From positions 1-5,753 of the IMG/VR virus record IMGVR_UViG_3300045988_003325: DNA of 5,753 nucleotides; one strand, given 5' to 3'. Made by a program: the position numbers and the translations under genes. The notes under the pieces were generated by a model that did not search any database, was not told the DNA's origin, and was given only the letters and a program-made list of their open reading frames with translations. The stretch is from a virus. This document shows positions 1 through 5,753 of the stretch, piece by piece. Positions within the stretch are counted from its first letter, which is position 1; every line of letters begins with the position of its first letter.

Positions 1-662
1 ATTTTTTTTGTAACGTACCCTGCAACATATCTATATGTTTCTGGCACTGCTTGTGCTATCTGTATTTGACCCATGCCCCATATGTTTGCTAGCCATTTAC
101 TTGTGAAATATCCGTTGTGTTGTATCTTGTATAGTTGTTCTAGGTCTGTTGGTTGCCATCCATATAGTATCATATGATAATGTGGCCTAGCTGTCTGTTC
201 TCCGTACTCTCCTGCTACAAAATAGCGTAATTTGCCCCTATAAGCCTTTCTGAGCCTTTTTAAGAATTTTTGAACATCAGTATACAGCAAAGTTTGGACG
301 CTTTCAGGGCGCTTCTCTCCCGGTTTCCAGACGTATTGTACTTTTCGCATGATTTCGCCTGTTTTTACTATCATGCCTGGTACGTGATCGTCGTCATACG
401 TGAGTGTGATAAACCAAACTTCTTCTCTTGGATAATCTCGTGCTTCTAATTCTATACGTGTTGTCCAGTCCTCTCTTTGTCTTATTCTGCATCCGATGCA
501 TTGCCCGCATGGTATTAGCATGACATCTTTTCTAAACATCAAATCTTCATATTTGAGCTGTTTCCCGATTATTTTAGAAAAGCGGGCAAGTGAATACACC
601 CGCCCGCTTATGTTTTTATTTTCCGGGTTGTACAGCCTTATTAACGGCTTGTAACAACTCAT
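1..662 (-). CDS. VP4: Replication initiation protein VP4 (HUH rolling-circle endonuclease), N-terminal ~220 codons. The gene crosses the circular junction and continues at 5753->5297; in unit-genome coordinates it is 5297..5654 joined to 1..662, 339 aa.
   Basis: Minus-strand translation from ATG at 662..660 gives MSCYKPLIRLYNPENKNISGRVYSLARFSKIIGKQLKYEDLMFRKDVMLIPCGQCIGCRIRQREDW...FITLTYDDDHVPG...RYFVAGEYGEQTARPHYHMILYGW...NIWG. The frame then continues without a stop into the 143-aa track ORF MGQIQIAQAVPETYRYVAGYVTKK... CGQCIGCR, FITLTY (motif 1), PHYHMIL (HUH motif 2) and YVAGYVTKK (catalytic Tyr motif 3) are the hallmarks of Microviridae VP4/gene A proteins. SD AGGTGA lies ~9 nt upstream. 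The start codon overlaps the VP2 stop (ATGA). The ORF track missed it because it runs off the window edge. Confidence 0.9.
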   Translation of the reverse strand, partial: MSCYKPLIRLYNPENKNISGRVYSLARFSKIIGKQLKYEDLMFRKDVMLIPCGQCIGCRIRQREDWTTRIELEARDYPREEVWFITLTYDDDHVPGMIVKTGEIMRKVQYVWKPGEKRPESVQTLLYTDVQKFLKRLRKAYRGKLRYFVAGEYGEQTARPHYHMILYGWQPTDLEQLYKIQHNGYFTSKWLANIWGMGQIQIAQAVPETYRYVAGYVTKK

Positions 663-1552
663 CTTAGATAATCACCTGGCTTTCTCTTTTCTCCGTATGA
701 TCCTGTTTTGTCTTGCGGTTTCATTTCTCGGCTTTCTCCTGTTTTTGGCTTGTTTCTTCCAGCGCCGCCGGCCGCTCCTGGCACAGTGCTTTCTGTCTTT
801 TGCATTTGCCTGTAGGTTTTCAGCAAATCTTCTGTTAATTGTTTTGGGCTGCTATAGCTTCTGCTCATTTGGCTGCCTACGGCTTCTGCAAGCTGATACC
901 ATTGTGAATTGCTTTCTGACTTGCTGTAATAGCTTGTCGGCACGTTGCCATTCATCGTTGATACGCCTAGTGCGCTTGATGTTGGCATTCCCATGCTTGC
1001 GCCTGTAATTGTTGCTCCGGAGCCTCCCGGTGTGCTTGCTCCTCCGTTTGCAAATGCTAAGATAGGGTTTAACCCTGCTTTTCGCATATCTTCCACGGCG
1101 CGTTGATAGCTTGTATTGCTCATGCGTTCTTGGAAATTTCGGTTTGCTAGTGCTTCTGCACTGTTGTAACTCATTGCAGCATTTTGCTCGATGTGGTTGT
1201 AAATGCCCTGTTGGATTGCTCCTAACGTGTTATAGCCCATCTGCATTAACATGTTTTGACGGTTTGTTTTGCTCTGGAATGCGTTTTGCCCTCCTTGCCA
1301 GTTATAGAAGCGGTCTAGATACTTCATGATTTGTTCGTCGTTTGTGCCGCCTTCACTTGTTGACGAACTTGTGCCAGCGCCTTGGCTTTGGCTTTGATTC
1401 CATCCCTGGCTTTGGCTGTCTGACGTTTGCCCAAACTGACTTGCTAGTCCTTTTCCAGCTAGTGTTAACGCGCTTGTTATTACTTGTGGATTATTTGCAA
1501 ACCAGCTACCTACTGCTTTTCCGGCCGCTCCGATTGCTCCTAGTATTGACAT
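659..1552 (-). CDS. VP2: Minor capsid / DNA pilot protein VP2 (297 aa)
   Basis: ATG start at 1552. Gly/Ala-rich hydrophobic N-terminus (MSILGAIGAAGKAVGSWF...), a long Ser/Gln/Gly low-complexity linker, and the block NTSYQRAVEDMRKAGLNPILA, which matches the conserved YQR..D...AGLNP motif of gokushovirus VP2 pilot proteins (from memory). Sits immediately downstream of VP1, as in other Microviridae. Confidence 0.8.
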   Translation of the reverse strand: MSILGAIGAAGKAVGSWFANNPQVITSALTLAGKGLASQFGQTSDSQSQGWNQSQSQGAGTSSSTSEGGTNDEQIMKYLDRFYNWQGGQNAFQSKTNRQNMLMQMGYNTLGAIQQGIYNHIEQNAAMSYNSAEALANRNFQERMSNTSYQRAVEDMRKAGLNPILAFANGGASTPGGSGATITGASMGMPTSSALGVSTMNGNVPTSYYSKSESNSQWYQLAEAVGSQMSRSYSSPKQLTEDLLKTYRQMQKTESTVPGAAGGAGRNKPKTGESREMKPQDKTGSYGEKRKPGDYLR

Positions 1553-1590
1553 TTAAAAATAGCCCGGATTTCTCCGGGCTTCCTCCTTTC
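1553..1590 (-). terminator. Intergenic stem-loop between VP1 and VP2: 8-bp stem AGCCCGGA/UCCGGGCU with GAAA tetraloop, followed by AUUUUUAAAUG. Candidate leaky intrinsic terminator/attenuator and mRNA-stabilising hairpin.
   Basis: + strand 1561-1568 agcccgga and 1573-1580 tccgggct are exact reverse complements. On the minus-strand transcript the stem is followed by the U-run encoded by + 1555-1559. The only SD-like element (AAGGAGGA, + 1581-1588) lies 5' of the hairpin, ~30 nt from the VP2 ATG. Confidence 0.4.
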
Positions 1591-3237
1591 TTACAGCTTG
1601 TACAAGCCCGGTACGCTGTACAACGGCATCCGTCTTGTGGTTTTGTTTGCTACGCGGATAGCTCCGAAAAATTGCGGCTCATTCTGCACAACGAGTGTGC
1701 GTGCAATTTCGTTCTTGCCTTCTTCCATCCAGTCTTGCGATAGTGTCGGTGCGGTTGAATAATTGTCTGCGTAGTGCCAGAAATCTAACGTGCCTGTTGC
1801 GTTGCTTCGCATGAGGCCGCTTACCCGGTTTGGTTTCATTCGGTAGTCCGCCCAGGCCTCCTGATAGCCGAATGTTTCTTCGTCCGTTGCCGTGCCGGTC
1901 AACATGATTTCTTTTTTCTTTACGGGCTGTTCGCCTATATTTGCAAACTGCGGTACATAGTAGTCTAGTCTGTCTTCTCGACTCCAGAAACGTTCCAAGC
2001 CTTGCTGATAACTGCGATTGTGTCGCACACAACAGACACCAATTACAAATCCATGCTCTTCAAAAGATTTGGTAAAAGAGCTTTCGTTTATCGGCGTTAC
2101 TGACATTGCACCAGTTTCGCCCAGCGGTGACATATCGTTTGCCGCTGTCTGCACGATTTGGTTGATATTGACGTGATATCTGCCGCCGCCCAGGTATTCT
2201 GGAATCTGTATCGTTTTGTCGCTGATAGTTACATTCCACAGTGCTTGTACCTGTTCGCGGTATCTGCTGCCGCCTCGTGCGAGCGCTTCGTAGTACTGCT
2301 GTACTGCTACGGCTTTTCTTAAGTCGTTGATCGTTGCTGCGGTTACACTGCTAAGGTCTGCTTTTAGGAATGCTTCTGCGGTGTAGTTACCTCCTTCAAT
2401 TGTGCCTTTTCCTGTCAGTTTTCCCGCTTTTTCCGTGTTTGTAAAGTTCGTTGTGCCGTTTGCCGGCCACGGCTGGTTTAGGATTATTTTATCTGTTATT
2501 TTGGCGGTATCTTGGATGGTGTTATATCCAAATACCGGTGCATTACCTTCCATCGGCAGCGTTACTGCCGGCCCGCGCTGAGGATAAGGCAGACAGCTTG
2601 TGAAGTAGTCGTGAAATTTGTTTACAGGTAACAGGTTTCCGCCTTTGTACGCGTTGTTTTCTGCTTCTTGCACCCAATCTTCATTTCCAAATTCGTAGTC
2701 TACGTTTGCATCGTCTGTTTTTAACGTTGCTACGTTATCTACGTTTTCATCTCTGAAAAATTCATTCCAGATTTTTACATACGCTCTTATGGGTAGTGCG
2801 TTAATGCTAAATTCTTTTTTAATTTTGGTCGGCACTCCCATATAGTCCAGTATGGATCTTTCGTTTGGTTTTGGTGCTGCGTCCGTTCCTTTGATTTTGA
2901 TTTTCGGCACTGCGTATTCTTTTTTTGGCATCCATGGTGTTGCTTCTACTTCTCCCATGAAGTATTTGAAGTTGTCCCACAGAATTCTGTTAGGACAATA
3001 GAAATAGTAGAAGTCAATGAATGCATCGTCCATCACCGGGTATTTCGGTGTGCTCATTCGTATGATTGCTGCTGTATCCACGTTGAAGGTATCGCCCGGT
3101 AATACCTCGTCAACATAGAATGGAATCAGCTTGCCGGAATCGAACGTTGTTAAAACCGTCTGGTCTCGGTTGAACCGTGTTCGGCTCGCTTTCATTTCTG
3201 GGATTTGGTTGAAGTGCCGTTCGTTGTTTCGATTCAC
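1591..3237 (-). CDS. VP1: Major capsid protein VP1 (548 aa), gokushovirus-type; GTG start codon
   Basis: Translation MNRNNERHFNQIPEMKASRTRFNRDQTVLTTFDSGKLIPFYVDEVLPGDTFNVDT... matches the conserved N-terminal block of gokushovirus VP1 (..SRF......TFD.G.L.P.YVDEVLPGDTF..) and the size is typical (530-570 aa). The first codon is GTG (revcomp of 3235-3237). An in-frame TAA lies 6 codons upstream, so no ATG alternative exists. A perfect AGGAGG lies 7 nt upstream. Confidence 0.93.
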   Translation of the reverse strand: MNRNNERHFNQIPEMKASRTRFNRDQTVLTTFDSGKLIPFYVDEVLPGDTFNVDTAAIIRMSTPKYPVMDDAFIDFYYFYCPNRILWDNFKYFMGEVEATPWMPKKEYAVPKIKIKGTDAAPKPNERSILDYMGVPTKIKKEFSINALPIRAYVKIWNEFFRDENVDNVATLKTDDANVDYEFGNEDWVQEAENNAYKGGNLLPVNKFHDYFTSCLPYPQRGPAVTLPMEGNAPVFGYNTIQDTAKITDKIILNQPWPANGTTNFTNTEKAGKLTGKGTIEGGNYTAEAFLKADLSSVTAATINDLRKAVAVQQYYEALARGGSRYREQVQALWNVTISDKTIQIPEYLGGGRYHVNINQIVQTAANDMSPLGETGAMSVTPINESSFTKSFEEHGFVIGVCCVRHNRSYQQGLERFWSREDRLDYYVPQFANIGEQPVKKKEIMLTGTATDEETFGYQEAWADYRMKPNRVSGLMRSNATGTLDFWHYADNYSTAPTLSQDWMEEGKNEIARTLVVQNEPQFFGAIRVANKTTRRMPLYSVPGLYKL

Positions 3238-3656
3238 TCTTTTTCCTCCTTTTCTTTAGTTTTTGTTTCAGGTTCTTTTTCTACTTTTTCTTCTGCCTTT
3301 TCTTCTGCCTTTTTTTGCAGTTCTTCAAGCTTCATTGCGTTTGCTTGTGCGGTCGCAATCATGCGATGATACTCGTGAATGTTTTGCGGAAATTCGGTGA
3401 TATCCACTTCTGTTCCGTTTAGTGCTCCTTGTGACAGGCTTTTCATGAATTGCGGGTCAAAACTTGCCTTTCTGACAATGCTTTTGATGTCGCATTCGTC
3501 CGCATAGCTTTCAATTTCCTGTTGGATGTCGATTGGTTCGGTCTCTTGCAGCACTTCTTGCCCTTTTTCGTCTTTTGTCCAGACGTATTGTTTTTGAAAT
3601 TTTTCTCCTGATTTTGAAAAGAAGGGCTTTCGCCCTTCTTCATATCGTTTATTCAT
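3234..3656 (-). CDS. Hypothetical ~140-aa acidic protein with Lys/Glu-rich C-terminal tail; candidate internal scaffolding (VP3-like) protein. The track ORF extends to 3716 using a TTG.
   Basis: ATG at 3656..3654 preceded by GGGAGGG ~8 nt upstream; the longer 160-aa form starts at a TTG with no SD. The stop overlaps the VP1 GTG start (GTGA), implying translational coupling with the capsid gene. The C-terminus ELQKKAEEKAEEKVEKEPETKTKEKEEKE is encoded by a tandem nucleotide repeat (ttcttctgcctttt x2 at ~3290-3320). Size and position resemble Microviridae scaffolding proteins, but no motif was recognised. Confidence 0.55.
   Translation of the reverse strand: MNKRYEEGRKPFFSKSGEKFQKQYVWTKDEKGQEVLQETEPIDIQQEIESYADECDIKSIVRKASFDPQFMKSLSQGALNGTEVDITEFPQNIHEYHRMIATAQANAMKLEELQKKAEEKAEEKVEKEPETKTKEKEEKE
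3245..3250 (-). promoter_or_regulatory. Shine-Dalgarno AGGAGG for VP1 (7-nt spacer to GTG start)
   Basis: + strand cctcct at 3245-3250 reads AAAGGAGGAAAAAGA-GTG on the minus strand. Confidence 0.7.
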
Positions 3657-3888
3657 GCGGCTTACCCTCCCACACCTTTTCTGTGTCGTTCGTGAACGTG
3701 CCGAGCTCGTCTTCAAATACTGCTAGCTTGAAACCGGTGTAGTCCTGTGGACTCTGCCCAATGAAGGTCTTTTCGTCCTTTGCCATCACGTTGCACATGC
3801 GTGCAAAGGTTGCACTGTTCTTGCTCTCGCCTACCCATGCGTAGCACTTTGCTACACTGTCCCATACGCCAAAATATTCATGCTTCAT
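3649..3888 (-). CDS. Hypothetical protein, 79 aa, mildly acidic, Trp-rich; no recognisable family
   Basis: ATG at 3888 with AAGGAAAG ~10 nt upstream. The stop overlaps the next gene's start by 8 nt (CATGAATAA). Lies in a tightly packed same-strand gene array. Confidence 0.55.
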   Translation of the reverse strand: MKHEYFGVWDSVAKCYAWVGESKNSATFARMCNVMAKDEKTFIGQSPQDYTGFKLAVFEDELGTFTNDTEKVWEGKPHE

Positions 3889-3908
3889 GATATCTACTTT
3901 CCTTTCTT

Positions 3909-4031
3909 TTACAGCCGGATGCCACCGCGCATAGGCTTCTGGCTAAGGTTGATTGTTTTGGTTTTTCGTGCGGTTACGTTAAACATGCGGCGGTCTTTTG
4001 CGCCGTTCATCCTCTTACGATGTTGTGCCAT
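3909..4031 (-). CDS. Small basic DNA-binding protein (40 aa), analogue of the phiX174 J / gokushovirus ORF8-type DNA-condensing protein. Not in the supplied ORF track because it is too short.
   Basis: Manual minus-strand translation from ATG 4031..4029 to TAA 3911..3909 gives MAQHRKRMNGAKDRRMFNVTARKTKTINLSQKPMRGGIRL. About 12 of 40 residues are Arg/Lys. The C-terminal RGGIRL and overall pattern match my recollection of the Chlamydia-phage ORF8 small basic protein. Good SD AAGGGAG 8 nt upstream. Overlaps the end of the 74-aa gene by 17 nt. Confidence 0.65.
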   Translation of the reverse strand: MAQHRKRMNGAKDRRMFNVTARKTKTINLSQKPMRGGIRL

Positions 4032-4239
4032 TGGTATACTCCCTTCTTACAAGTTCCATTTCGATTGCGTTTGCAAAACTCTTCATTCTCCATATTTCGT
4101 CAAGCATTTTTTTTGCGTCTTCGACGTTAGATATTTTGCGAAGCATTTTGTATTCGCCATCGATTTCTTTGTATTTTCGAGTTAGCATCTCTTCAAGCGC
4201 TTCTTTGGTCTGGTCTCTTACGTTCCATGTTTTGTGCAT
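4015..4239 (-). CDS. Hypothetical protein, 74 aa, predicted all-helical and Lys/Glu-rich (possible coiled coil); VP5/C-like function is speculation only
   Basis: ATG at 4239 (the track's first M is a GTG one codon upstream). AAGGAG lies 9 nt upstream, and the preceding gene's TGA stop (4248..4246) lies just before that SD. No recognisable motif. Confidence 0.55.
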   Translation of the reverse strand: MHKTWNVRDQTKEALEEMLTRKYKEIDGEYKMLRKISNVEDAKKMLDEIWRMKSFANAIEMELVRREYTNGTTS

Positions 4240-4245
4240 CACGGT

Positions 4246-4368
4246 TCACTCCTTTTCTTTTTCGTTGATGCTATCGTGCAGCGCATGATAGATTTCGTCG
4301 AGTTTTTCCAGAATCTGCATCATGATGCGGATTGCCTGCTTGATGTCTTTAATGGAAATCAGTGCCAT
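4246..4368 (-). CDS. Hypothetical small amphipathic peptide (40 aa: MALISIKDIKQAIRIMMQILEKLDEIYHALHDSINEKEKE); the alternative 71-aa form starts at ATG 4461
   Basis: ATG at 4368 begins 1 nt after the peptidase TAA stop (TAAAATG) and is preceded by AGGGGG ~7 nt upstream. The longer form from 4461 has no SD and would overlap 92 nt of the peptidase gene in another frame. Confidence 0.45.
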   Translation of the reverse strand: MALISIKDIKQAIRIMMQILEKLDEIYHALHDSINEKEKE

Positions 4369-4369
4369 T

Positions 4370-4762
4370 TTATACCCCCTTTCTGTACTTGCTGGTTCGT
4401 ACATCAAAGTGCACCCAGCTTTTGTATACGATAATGCCGCATTCATCCGGGACGATTGCATTCAGTTCGTTGGCAATTTCTTTTGCACTCATTCCATTTA
4501 CTCGGATATCTGCTGCCATACCGCGCATATGATAGCTGTATTTTGCTCCCCCGCATTTTGTGTTCCACTCTGGTGTTCTGTATCCGCTGGTGATGATGAC
4601 CGGTTTTTCTAACTTATTTCGCAGGATGTCCAGAACACTATACAAGTAGTCGTCTATGAATACTACCGGACTGCCGTCTTTACATGCAAATTCTTTTACT
4701 TTGAAGTATTTTGCAAGCTTTACATTTCCGTCAGTTTCTACAATGTAGCTTTTAATGCTCAT
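4370..4762 (-). CDS. Peptidase M15 (M15A / Peptidase_M15_3, zinc D-Ala-D-Ala carboxypeptidase-fold cell-wall hydrolase); likely lysis enzyme. The maximal ORF extends to ATG 4867 (165 aa).
   Basis: ITSGYRTPEWNTKCGGAKYSYHMRGMAADIRVNG...SWVHFDVR contains the family signature SGYR..N...GG..S.H..G.A.D plus VHxD (the His/Asp/His zinc ligands). The internal ATG at 4762 has GAGGAAA 7 nt upstream and gives a 130-aa product of typical domain size. The upstream ATG at 4867 has no SD and adds a Lys-rich 35-aa extension. No signal peptide. Confidence 0.8.
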   Translation of the reverse strand: MSIKSYIVETDGNVKLAKYFKVKEFACKDGSPVVFIDDYLYSVLDILRNKLEKPVIITSGYRTPEWNTKCGGAKYSYHMRGMAADIRVNGMSAKEIANELNAIVPDECGIIVYKSWVHFDVRTSKYRKGV

Positions 4763-4904
4763 GGCTGTTTCCTCGCTTTCTGTTTTGATTGTATCATCTT
4801 TTTTGTCGCTTGTCAATTGTTTTTTTGGCTTGAATGGCGCTTTAGCGCCTTGCCGTGCGTAGCGCATGCGGAGCTCGGCTTAATCCATTCCTTTTTAGCG
4901 CTGT

Positions 4905-5025
4905 GCGCGTTTTTAACACTTTCAACATTTTCAACAGCTTTTCAACAAAATATTGCACAATGATTTTCGTCATTTTGACGAACATTCAACATTTTAACAT
5001 TTTTTCAACAAATCTTTCAACATTG
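4905..5025. repeat. Iteron-like direct repeats: six perfect TTCAACA copies (4921, 4930, 4941, 4985, 5004, 5016) plus degenerate TTAACA copies, all in one orientation, 9-12 bp apart, in two clusters of three
   Basis: Read directly from the sequence. Each copy is preceded by a T-tract, giving ~10.5-bp phasing. The extended unit TTTTCAACA is 8/9 identical to the DnaA-box consensus TTATCCACA. Confidence 0.6.
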
Positions 5026-5120
5026 TTTTTTGTTATTTATTTACGCTTTAACGTTAAATTTTAGTACTTATCAACTTTTCCACATTGCCTACTACTACGT
5101 CTACAACAAGTTAATATTAT

Positions 5121-5190
5121 ATCGCGCGTGCGCGCGTGCGCGCTATCGCGCGTGCGCGCGTGCGCGCTATCGCGCGTGCGTGCACGTGTG
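5121..5190. repeat. GC-rich tandem repeat: the 24-nt unit ATCGCGCGTGCGCGCGTGCGCGCT occurs as two exact copies (5121-5144, 5145-5168) plus a diverged partial copy (5169-5190) ending in the palindrome CGTGCACG. Alternating purine/pyrimidine (CG/TG) tract.
   Basis: Exact copies verified by eye. About 85% GC inside a ~43% GC genome. Many self-complementary CGCGCG/GCGCGC blocks allow alternative hairpins in ssDNA or Z-DNA in dsDNA. Confidence 0.75.
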
Positions 5191-5236
5191 AATTAGATTA
5201 TTTGATAGACTGAATAGTCTGATATATGGAGTCTTT

Positions 5237-5276
5237 AAACGACAAAAGCCCAGTGCTTACTTGATAGGCACTGGGC
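5237..5276 (-). terminator. Rho-independent terminator downstream of VP4 on the minus strand: 9-bp stem GCCCAGUGC/GCACUGGGC, 11-nt loop, then UUUUGUCGUUU
   Basis: + 5248-5256 gcccagtgc and 5268-5276 gcactgggc are exact reverse complements. The A-tract at + 5244-5247 gives the U-run on the minus-strand RNA. Lies 21 nt after the VP4 TAA (5299..5297). Confidence 0.55.
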
Positions 5277-5296
5277 TAGGTGACACCATGACACTG

Positions 5297-5753
5297 TTAA
5301 AGTGTCCCTTTTTTCTTTGTTTGTTTCTTGATTACTCTTTCTTTTGTCTTGCACTGTTCCGTAAAGTCTGCGTTTTCATACTTAAGCCTGTTTTCTGCTA
5401 TGACTGCTTCTTGTCTGTTCTGCTTAATTCTCCACAATCTTTGTGGGTTTTCAGCTTCCATCATTTTTTCATAATAACGTGGAATTTGTGCGTGTTTTCC
5501 GTTTGTGCATTGGATATAGCCTTGCTTCCATATTTCTGCTTTGTGTTCTTGGTAATAGTGGTCTCCCAGGCCTGGCTTGAGACTCATACATGCAAAAGGT
5601 TTTTGTTGCCCTAGTTCATAGTATGCGTTTGCCTTTATTCCGTCTATTTCGTACATTTTTTTTGTAACGTACCCTGCAACATATCTATATGTTTCTGGCA
5701 CTGCTTGTGCTATCTGTATTTGACCCATGCCCCATATGTTTGCTAGCCATTTA
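5297..5753 (-). CDS. VP4: Replication initiation protein VP4, C-terminal part (continuation of the gene whose start is at 662). Nt 5655-5753 duplicate nt 1-99.
   Basis: The track ORF 5297..5728 (MGQIQIAQAVPETYRYVAGYVTKKMYEIDG...) is in frame with, and contiguous to, the N-terminal part across the circular junction. It contains motif 3 YVAGYVTKK and ends at TAA 5299..5297. Confidence 0.9.
   Translation of the reverse strand, partial: KWLANIWGMGQIQIAQAVPETYRYVAGYVTKKMYEIDGIKANAYYELGQQKPFACMSLKPGLGDHYYQEHKAEIWKQGYIQCTNGKHAQIPRYYEKMMEAENPQRLWRIKQNRQEAVIAENRLKYENADFTEQCKTKERVIKKQTKKKGTL
5655..5753. repeat. Terminal redundancy: 99 nt identical to window positions 1-99 (circular genome closure; unit length 5,654 nt)
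   Basis: Exact string identity of 5655-5753 with 1-99 checked base by base. The VP4 reading frame is continuous across this junction. Confidence 0.9.

Follow-up and report, generated by a model that had tools for sequence, protein, structure and literature searches.

Introduction

Gokushoviruses (Gokushovirinae, Microviridae) are single-stranded DNA (ssDNA) phages and are among the most abundant phages of the gut. To our knowledge, neither their origins of replication nor their strand polarity or host factors have ever been defined. Here we analyse a stretch of viral DNA of 5,753 nt (IMG/VR record IMGVR_UViG_3300045988_003325, positions 1 to 5,753; hereafter 'the window'), which holds a gokushovirus genome, and concentrate on its non-coding region. 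This region includes a hairpin with covarying stems (hairpin H) and a cassette that resembles the unwinding module of the bacterial replication origin, oriC (cassette M). Positions are those of the window as given, and features are on its minus strand, which is the coding strand, unless stated otherwise.

The classic gokushoviruses have smaller genomes. Chlamydia phage Chp2 (NC_002194, 4,563 nt; locus L092) has homologous VP1, VP2, VP3, VP4, VP5 and ORF8 genes, but differs from the window in placing VP3 between VP2 and ORF8/VP4 and in having neither a peptidase nor a cassette with TAG trinucleotides. Its main intergenic region (2812–2945) contains a 14-bp perfect hairpin, CTAGCGTATAACAG-tctACTTGAT-CTGTTATACGCTAG, with a phiX174-like nick core in its loop (on the coding strand, where the window has it on the other), and some 70 nt upstream of it two perfect DnaA-box matches, TGTGCAAAA, at 2820 and 2832; the literature that we searched mentions neither the box matches nor the hairpin. 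Intergenic hairpins with an ACTTGTT loop are present in phiMH2K (L090, 4,594 nt) at 3296–3335, ggaccctACTTGTTGTAAg, and in SpV4 (L091, 4,421 nt) at 512–544, attACTTGTTata. Cassette M was not found in Chp2, SpV4 or phiMH2K. In the subfamily Bullavirinae, phiX174 has a replication initiator (Rep) of the HUH type with two tyrosines four residues apart, as does the window, and its core AACTTG|ATA recurs in the window, as ACTTGATA on the complement of hairpin H and as AACTTG in the cassette core. However, the phiX174 origin is a 30-nt unstructured site within gene A, on the coding strand, whereas the candidates in the window lie in its non-coding region, and phiX174 encodes an external scaffold (D) and a spike (G) and lyses its host by the single gene E; Pfam and PHROG scans gave no match to any of these for a window open reading frame (ORF).

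Much closer relatives are available from the gut. A megablast search matched 23 GenBank phage records, the best of them being Human gut gokushovirus SH-CHD5 (KX513868, 6,042 nt), with 82% nucleotide identity over 80% of the genome, and Gokushovirus WZ-2015a 43Fra07 (KT264791, 6,028 nt), with 86% over 73%. The Reps of these two are 91–92% identical to that of the window, an M15 peptidase is annotated in both, and both share hairpin H, the GC-rich tract, cassette M and the GC-rich segment described below. Their gene order, which is also that of MG945447, is the same as in the window: VP4, non-coding region, M15 peptidase, small ORFs, VP5, VP3, VP1, VP2. In IMG/VR, 232 contigs encode a relative of the window's Rep; we retrieved 80 of these, with Reps at least 90% identical and genomes of 5.4–6.2 kb, the nearest having whole-genome identities of 79–89% over 85–100%.

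Results

An oriC-like cassette in the non-coding region

The non-coding region extends from 5296 to 4763 (534 nt) and has five parts, namely hairpin H, a GC-rich tract, cassette M, a GC-rich segment and a promoter. Its first ~400 nt, from hairpin H to the GC-rich segment, can be aligned in 85–97% of relatives at 84–86% identity, which makes them as well conserved as Rep and better conserved than the structural genes (80%); over the last ~100 nt the figure drops to 66%.

Cassette M (4911–5122) was delimited by its sequence and its conservation in relatives, and is non-coding. On the coding strand it reads ATATAATATTAACTTGTTG, TAG ACG TAG TAG TAG, GCAA, TGTGGAAAA GTTGATAAG, followed by six TGTTGAA repeats. 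The initial AT-rich stretch ATATAATATTAACTTGTTG (5122–5104) has 19 nt and 84% A+T, and reaches 30–34 nt in two relatives (L084, L085). The trinucleotides (5103–5089) are in register and are separated by the GCAA spacer from TGTGGAAAA (5084–5076), a perfect match to the DnaA-box consensus TTWTNCACA, with no other in the window, and one mismatch from TGTGGATAA. Six DnaA-box matches with at most one mismatch, in a single orientation, fall within the 175 nt of 4910–5084. The TGTTGAA repeats, each one mismatch from the DnaA-box core, flank a small hairpin TTCGTCAaaaTGACGAA (4982–4966); all six copies in the window sit at 4921–5022, where 1.1 would be expected by chance, and relatives have six to nine. 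A 47-aa ORF over this array (4985–4842) was rejected as a gene, as a 1-nt indel breaks its frame in KX513868 and it is destroyed in inverted cassettes.

The cassette is widespread. Its core, AACTTGTTGTAG-NNN-TAGTAGTAG, is invariant in 175 distinct relatives, and a search of IMG/VR with this core gave at least 120 matching stretches, from which 105 further contigs were retrieved, all of 6.3 kb or less. Gokushoviruses with Reps only 47–57% identical carry the same cassette, some with canonical TGTGGATAA boxes, and a clade with Reps only about 39% identical also has it, at a different position; in KX513864 it lies between VP2 and VP4. The cassette has the same orientation as the genes in 139 of 173 relatives and is inverted in the other 34. 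Among close relatives, an inverted cassette of ~220 nt is found in L003, L022, L025, L045, L047, L076 and L078, between the GC-rich tract and ACGCGCACAGCGCT. By sequence, the nearest relatives of these inverted alleles are other inverted alleles, yet the Rep genes around them are 93–97% identical to those of forward-type genomes. We therefore rejected an in-place flip-flop for the close relatives, in which the inverted cassettes form a sequence cluster of their own; the two orientations are better seen as alleles exchanged by recombination, both of which must work.

The boundaries of the cassette are GC-rich. To the right is a conserved non-coding segment (4836–4910), ACGCGCACAGCGCT...GCCGAGCTCCGC...GGCGCTAAAGCGCC, which is kept in close relatives, including those with inverted cassettes. 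On the other side, a repeat scan identified a 72-nt tract of strictly alternating purines and pyrimidines (5120–5191, assigned to neither strand). It is an imperfect palindrome in which a 24-nt unit (coding strand CGCGCACGCGCGCACGCGCGATAG) occurs three times in tandem, and in forward-type genomes it adjoins the AT-rich end of the cassette. In most relatives this tract is ~40 nt long, with two imperfectly complementary arms, and it is missing from L022 and L088. It could form a stable hairpin, a cruciform or Z-DNA.

Likeness to a bacterial basal unwinding system

Our preferred reading, put forward tentatively and at less than even odds, is that cassette M is a module on the double-stranded replicative form (RF) at which the host initiator DnaA would bind and unwind DNA. 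The layout of AT-rich stretch, (TAG)n, spacer and TGTGNAWAA is the reverse complement of the order in Clostridioides difficile oriC2, which has boxes, a GC cluster, (CTA)n and the DNA unwinding element (DUE). The order and polarity of the elements on one strand are thus like those of bacterial oriC's basal unwinding system (BUS), as in B. subtilis incC and C. difficile oriC2. The trio run of C. difficile oriC2 is CTA CTA CTA TTA CTA CTA, so that on the corresponding strand TAG TAG TAA TAG TAG TAG compares with TAG NNG TAG TAG TAG in the cassette. As in a BUS, there is a proximal box 4 nt from the trios; beyond it lies a candidate distal cluster of five or six box-like 9-mers, most with one mismatch. 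The polarity of the box was checked against the published description of C. difficile and against the E. coli oriC sequence.

Published rules for a BUS search define at least three NAN DnaA-trios (3'-NAN-5', preferred 3'-GAT-5') with a box of at most two mismatches to TTATCCACA within 16 bp (PMC8287927), and such an arrangement is present in the window and in 75 of 87 relatives. Runs of at least three NAN trios occur in 86 of these 87, and four to six TAG within nine triplets in 85. The box, TGTGGAAAA in the window, has the fixed polarity and follows 4 nt after the last TAG, with the DUE on the other side of the trios; it shows no more than two mismatches in 75 of the 87. Across the same relatives, box-like 9-mers are 13 times as dense in the cassette as in the rest of the genome and seven times as dense as in composition-matched shuffles, and they strongly favour one orientation (4.6 per cassette, against 0.17 in the other). 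The repeat array persists in every tier of Rep identity, down to 38–39%; repeats that stay unchanged while Rep diverges to this extent are more in keeping with a conserved host factor than with a phage protein that evolves fast. The occurrence of the cassette in both orientations also speaks for DnaA, in that the module would be independent of orientation.

Several observations weigh against this reading. The dominant repeat, TGTTGAA(A) (TGTTGAAA), always has one mismatch, and at a box position that is normally stringent, so that most boxes of cassette M are the variant TGTTGAAAA, unlike those of bacterial oriC. Perfect boxes average 0.9 per cassette (range 0.04–1.6, with 0.04 in the most distant clade), and the box count over the whole window is not significantly enriched (21 observed against 14.3 +/- 3.9 expected). 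The AT-rich stretch that would serve as the DUE is short, at just 19 nt in the window. The genomic setting also differs from that of a bacterial origin, since the cassette belongs to an ssDNA phage of 5.6 kb and neighbours an HUH Rep gene, with no adjacent dnaA or dnaN, and DnaA binding to it is putative. A search of bacterial genomes with the cassette core AACTTGTTGTAGNNNTAGTAGTAG gave six matches, no host oriC among them, and hence no sign that the phage mimics a host origin: five are coding coincidences (adenylate kinase 'ELVVDLVVD' in two Lachnospiraceae, KLVVGIVVDQMRYDY in two Flavobacteriales metagenome-assembled genomes (MAGs), and one other ORF) and the remaining match falls in a microvirus contig of 5.7 kb that had been binned into a MAG. 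Finally, the cassette could be a Rep site with Rep-binding repeats, given that its core AACTTGTTGTAG has 10 nt in common with the loop of the phiMH2K hairpin.

This last alternative is the main rival. Here cassette M is the rolling-circle origin of the phage, nicked by VP4 within TAACTTG|TTGTAG (candidate cleavage sequence TAACTTGTTGTAG), and the TAG and TGTTGAA repeats are Rep-binding iterons. The stretch in common with the phiMH2K loop is ACTTGTTGTA, while AACTTG is shared with the phiX174 nick site CAACTTG|ATA, in which the nick position is established knowledge; the loops of SpV4 and Dulem virus 161 also read ACTTGTT, TGTTG is present in both the core and the repeats, and the cassette is confined to certain gokushovirus clades, being absent from Chp2, SpV4 and phiMH2K. 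However, with the cassette inverted relative to the genes in 34 of 173 relatives, close relatives would have to package opposite strands, and repeats that remain constant while Rep falls to 38–39% identity are unlike virus-specific iterons. Furthermore, the two candidate nick cores of the window, AACTTG in the AT-rich part of cassette M and ACTTGATA in the complement of the hairpin H loop, are on opposite strands, but inverted-cassette genomes carry both on one strand; two active sites would give subgenomic circles in a rolling-circle replicon, so that at most one of them can be a real Rep site. We consider a Rep origin in the cassette a serious but rather unlikely explanation.

Two other comparisons of the cassette gave nothing. 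A search against PLSDB plasmids returned only 38-nt chance matches in Acinetobacter, and a dif/XerCD site at GCGCGATATAATATTAAC was rejected as a poor match by eye to the dif sequences of E. coli and B. subtilis.

Hairpin H and the polarity of the nick motif

Hairpin H (5247–5277) reads AGCCCAGTGC-cTATCAAGtaa-GCACTGGGCT, followed by the T-run TTTTGTCGTTT, and is a candidate Rep nick hairpin, an intrinsic terminator, or both. It is present in 89 of 91 relatives, in 33 distinct versions and always on the coding strand. Compensatory changes occur at 7 of the 10 stem pairs, and 96.7% of cells in the alignment are paired, a level reached by none of 500 shuffles (0/500); no slid register comes close to the observed pairing, the loop core TATCAAG is fixed, and the centroid of the DNA fold also contains the hairpin. 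The sequence CTATCAA(A/G)T occurs again within tatcagactattcagtctatcaa (5205–5228, coding strand), ~45 nt downstream of the hairpin loop CTATCAAGT; in KX513868 the two copies are both CTATCAAGT. This additional copy may be another site recognised by the factor that reads the loop.

The loop belongs to a pattern seen across the subfamily. Among 25 diverse gokushoviruses surveyed for hairpins with a perfect stem of 9 bp or more, 22 have one with CTTG or CAAG in its loop (consensus ACTTG(A/T)T), with unrelated stems. The motif is on the coding strand in Chp2, SpV4, phiMH2K, Dulem virus 161 and six IMG/VR gokushoviruses unrelated to Chp2; in the clade of the window it is on the non-coding strand, as it is in every one of the 168 genomes with the cassette in which the hairpin could be detected. 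Three genomes without the cassette likewise have the non-coding polarity, so the link between hairpin polarity and cassette is not absolute. Searches of the literature for Microviridae with DnaA box, nick site or stem-loop returned no description of either the hairpin motif or the oriC-like cassette.

That the coding strand is the packaged one, and the window as given its complement, had been assumed in the preliminary description by analogy. The nick core of phiX174 type on the given (+) strand argues weakly against this, and suggests instead that the given, non-coding strand might be packaged, with VP4 nicking CTTG|ATA in the hairpin H loop on the plus strand of a negative-sense clade. The complement of the loop, TTACTTGATAG, contains ACTTGATA, which matches the phiX174 core at 8/8 positions, and the relative L087 reads AACTTGATA here, a match of 9/9. 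CTTGATA, which resembles the loop motif, also occurs in the pC194-type origin; covarying stems around a fixed loop are the usual signature of an HUH nick hairpin; and the YVAGYVTKK of Rep is close to the tyrosine motif of phiX174 protein A. The distribution of the loop motif also counts here, with the coding strand carrying it in Chp2, SpV4, phiMH2K and the six IMG/VR genomes and the non-coding strand in all 168 with the cassette. On the other side, the coding strand is packaged in all characterised Microviridae, the motif is short, a hairpin followed by a T-run would equally suit an intrinsic terminator of the VP1-VP2-VP4 transcript, and Rep might instead read the coding-strand loop TATCAAG. 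We regard packaging of the antisense strand as improbable, somewhat more so than a Rep origin within the cassette; nevertheless, cleavage of either motif in the phiX polarity would mean that some or all of the clade packages the non-coding strand.

A possible role in transcription

Less probable again is that the cassette repeats are transcriptional control sites, either stacked TTGAAA elements of -35 type or operators at which a regulator of phage or host origin would act, Spo0A-type 0A boxes being one example. The repeat TGTTGAA differs at one position from TGNCGAA, the 0A-box consensus, a promoter-like TTGAAA-18-TAAAAT lies inside the array (5020->4991), many relatives have TATAAT-like sequences just upstream of the core, and the cassette is upstream of the main promoter. 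Yet the promoter-like site is not conserved, relatives having TGTTGAAAT in its place; two orientations and the position between VP2 and VP4 in KX513864 are hard to square with promoter architecture; L086–L089 have the array but lack ORF74, one of the small genes downstream; and the invariant TAG run and AACTTGTTGTAG core would have no obvious role.

A complete circular genome

In a self-comparison of the window, positions 1–99 (a terminal redundancy, assigned to neither strand) are identical to 5655–5753 at 100%, which leaves a unit of 5,654 nt. Circularisation in silico produces a Rep ORF of 339 aa on the minus strand, running 662->1 and then 5654->5297, which is complete only across the junction; neither end alone holds it. 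Together with the protein family matches given below, these features make us confident that the window represents a complete circular genome of 5,654 nt belonging to the Gokushovirinae, from a clade that is abundant in human and pig gut and most likely infects Clostridia-type Firmicutes. The preliminary description had already proposed a closed gokushovirus genome, and nothing of weight was found against this identity. Terminal overlaps occur in 43 of 83 related loci, most often of 55, 77, 99, 119 or 141 nt, and because these are typical assembler k-mer sizes we regard the 99-nt redundancy as an artefact of assembling a circular template, as had been suspected, and not as a biological repeat. 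Identical ends alone would fit a terminally redundant linear molecule as well as a circle, but a genuine terminal repeat, or a prophage or fragment of some larger replicon in place of a closed 5.65-kb circle, is very improbable indeed when the Rep ORF is whole only through the junction, GenBank relatives with identical gene order are deposited as circular, overlap lengths track assembler k-mers, integrase and flanking host genes are absent from the window, and a VP1 search of 185,579 bacterial species genomes yields no relatives.

The window has 40–45% GC overall, all its long ORFs are on the minus strand, in agreement with the description of all genes on one strand, and a GGAGG-type ribosome-binding site (RBS) precedes every gene. 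Its genome exceeds those of Chp2, SpV4 and phiMH2K by about the 1 kb first estimated, and the excess consists of the 534 nt of non-coding DNA, the peptidase gene (393 nt) and two small ORFs. An Rfam scan (E up to 1) returned only a chance-level match to Termite-leu, of 21 bits against a threshold of 51 bits.

Replication and structural genes

Similarity of VP1 and VP4 to Microviridae proteins had been suggested as a check on the classification, and both matches are strong. VP4 is encoded in two parts of the window, its N-terminal two thirds (residues 1–221) at 1–662 and its C-terminal third at 5297–5654, where the junction-spanning ORF continues from position 1 to a TAA stop at 5299–5297; it matches PF23343 (E=1.1e-17) and phrog_942 (E=4.2e-108). 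Motifs read from its sequence comprise a cysteine cluster (C52/C55/C58), motif I FITLTY (84–89), the HUH motif H161-Y-H163 and two tyrosines in Y212-VAG-Y216, by which VP4 is a predicted rolling-circle Rep of the HUH type with motifs I, II and a two-tyrosine motif III.

VP1, the major capsid protein (548 aa, 1591–3237), has a GTG start, which overlaps the VP3 stop (GTGA), and an AAGGAGG RBS; it matches Phage_F (PF02305, E=1.4e-140) and phrog_514 (E=1.5e-204). Against solved gokushovirus capsids it gives E=1.7e-105 (PDB 8des) and E=1.8e-96 (9cgm), and against phiX174 F only 1e-3. Residues ~207–290 (window 2370–2620) can be aligned at the nucleotide level in only 20–55% of relatives (20–81% in bins 3700–3900 of the rotated genome), against more than 90% elsewhere in VP1, and are the hypervariable surface loop, or insertion, of gokushovirus capsids. 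Two stretches of VP2, at roughly 700–1000 and 1250–1500, are variable in the same way. VP2, the DNA pilot protein (297 aa, 659–1552), matches phrog_8742, 'pilot protein for DNA ejection' (E=1.9e-107), and has no match in a Pfam scan of the window proteins. A terminator-like hairpin, AGCCCGGAGAAATCCGGGCT followed by a T-run (1561–1580), lies between VP1 and VP2 and was found by a consensus scan only. The stop of VP2 overlaps the ATG of Rep (ATGA), so that the order VP1-VP2-VP4 with VP2 abutting VP4 was correctly described.

VP3 is likewise not between VP2 and VP4, having moved upstream of VP1. This internal scaffolding protein (140 aa, 3234–3656) begins with the ATG at 3656 behind a GGGAGGG RBS and matches Chlamy_scaf (PF09675, E=5e-10) and phrog_24309 (E=2e-71); a longer, 160-aa form in the ORF listing starts at an upstream TTG, and its residues 21–150 are those that match phrog_24309. 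VP5 (79 aa, 3649–3888) is a non-structural protein matching Phage_ORF5 (PF20577, E=5e-9) and phrog_1670 (E=7e-16). The ORF8/J-like gene (3909–4031) encodes a small basic DNA-binding protein of 40 aa ending in RGGIRL, which matches phrog_10695 (E=1.7e-11) and is 41% identical to Chp2 ORF8; its counterpart in phiMH2K is annotated as J-like.

The peptidase operon

Six ORFs do separate the non-coding region from VP1, but the term 'accessory module' applied to them cannot be kept, in that three are core genes (VP3, VP5 and ORF8/J-like) and a fourth, the M15_3 peptidase, has been known from human-gut gokushoviruses since 2012 (PMC3394797). Two of the proposed ORF boundaries were also corrected. The peptidase (130 aa, 4370–4762) is a LAS-type zinc peptidase and putative endolysin, with matches to PF08291 (E=3e-22; 79 bits, cut-off 23.2) and to phrog_894, 'endolysin' (E=5e-41). 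A 165-aa form starting at 4867 was rejected, as its first 35 codons are non-coding DNA plus promoter in relatives; the start is placed at 4762 because the N-terminus first assumed contains the promoter and a GAGGAAA RBS, relatives have non-coding DNA in place of the extension, and tblastn homology begins near residue 38. This promoter (4788–4816) is of the sigma-A/sigma-70 type, TTGACA, 17 nt, TG-n-TACAAT, with 11/12 matches and an extended -10, and lies upstream of the peptidase operon; the equivalent site in relatives is TTGACA-17-TATAAT. The zinc-ligand motif SYH78MRGMAAD85 ... VH118FD (H-x6-D...H) is intact, and in an alignment to PDB 1lbu it falls on the active-site stretch. Identity is 64–88% to the peptidases of relatives and 43% to endolysins of Faecalibacterium phages; the M15_3 peptidases of gut Microviridae and the endolysins of Faecalibacterium phages and prophages are of the same Pfam family, with the same LAS zinc motif. 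Peptidases have been described as recurrent lysis accessories (Kirchberger et al. 2022, PMC9239249).

A lytic role has points against it. The peptidase has no signal sequence and a hydrophilic N-terminus, and none of the usual routes across the membrane (holin, signal peptide, or signal-arrest-release (SAR) domain) was found for it; a scan of the coding-strand ORFs of 25 aa or more detected no membrane-spanning segment (the highest Kyte-Doolittle mean over 19 aa was 1.32), which leaves no candidate for a holin. In this it differs from the holin-endolysin cassettes of tailed phages.

Downstream are two small genes. ORF40 (4246–4368) encodes a helical 40-aa protein with an acidic tail behind a GGGGGT RBS; an ORF of 71 aa had been listed, which we shortened to start at 4368 on the basis of the RBS and of relatives. 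ORF40 is conserved, being tblastn-positive in 84 of 93 loci, distant ones included (39–70% identity), and found no family in Pfam and PHROG searches. It always adjoins the gene for the peptidase or that for the basic protein, in distant relatives as well. ORF74 (4015–4242; 74–75 aa, helical, AAGGAG RBS) is conserved in the clade, with no Pfam or PHROG match, and is found in 81 of the 93 loci but missing from L086–L089.

KX513868 and KT264791 are ~400 nt longer than the window, with one or two extra small genes, under their own promoters, between the conserved non-coding region and the peptidase; their absence accounts for most of the smaller size of the window. Such genes are located at 1480–2010 in L001, 4040–4510 in L002 and 1530–1830 in L003, each with a near-perfect TTGACA-17-TATAAT promoter and a GGAGG RBS.

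Relatives and hosts

With genome-wide identities below 95%, the window is a separate species-level lineage. It is, however, an ordinary new species-level variant within a dense and well-sampled cluster of gut gokushoviruses, and a 'poorly characterised' lineage, as it had been called, does not fit 23 GenBank records, 232 IMG/VR Rep relatives and a VP1-VP2-VP4 order that is standard for the suborder (PMC9239249). A gut origin, one of the two suggested with this label, is supported.

Clostridia-type hosts are suggested by the GGAGG-type RBS, the extended -10 promoter and the 43% identity of the peptidase to Faecalibacterium phage endolysins. For human-gut gokushoviruses, M15_3 peptidases with affinity to Faecalibacterium had suggested Gram-positive hosts (Roux et al. 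2012, PMC3394797), and for gut gokushoviruses Clostridiales hosts have been predicted from CRISPR (Shah et al. 2023, PMC10159846). It counts against this assignment that it is indirect, since the VP1 search found no prophage or close relative in the 185,579 species-representative genomes. One complete-looking, cassette-bearing microvirus contig (L095, CAVKUS010000079.1, 5,739 nt) is binned in the MAG 'Bacteroides sp. CAG:545'; this placement is probably a binning artefact and no evidence of a host.

Discussion

The genome in itself changes little, since both the peptidase and the gene order are already in the literature. The conserved non-coding region is the only part that could repay further work, and it yields concrete sequence elements: a covarying hairpin whose ACTTG(A/T)T loop is found throughout the subfamily in two polarities, and an oriC-like cassette that is kept across Reps down to 38–39% identity.

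From established microvirus biology, the infecting ssDNA would be converted to the double-stranded RF, which would be transcribed from sigma-A-type promoters; VP4 would nick the origin and start rolling-circle synthesis, ssDNA and the basic protein would be packed into VP1/VP3 procapsids, and the peptidase would cut peptidoglycan cross-links and so release the phage. With lower confidence, the nick site might be supplied by hairpin H or by the AACTTGTTGTAG core of cassette M, and on the double-stranded form cassette M might bind DnaA and be unwound, copying the basal unwinding system of a bacterial oriC.

A broader proposal, which goes beyond DnaA binding and which we consider correspondingly doubtful, is that the clade has captured a working oriC unwinding module from bacteria as an invertible cassette, that host DnaA, rather than supercoiling by itself, opens the RF for Rep and for helicase loading or maintains the phage as an episome, and that at least part of the clade packages the antisense strand. 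Antisense-strand packaging is not known among Microviridae.

If host DnaA is indeed involved, phage replication would be linked to the initiation machinery of the host. Carriage without integration has been observed for the gokushovirus EC6098 (PMC7062461), and the involvement of DnaA might help to explain such long-term episomal persistence of gokushoviruses.

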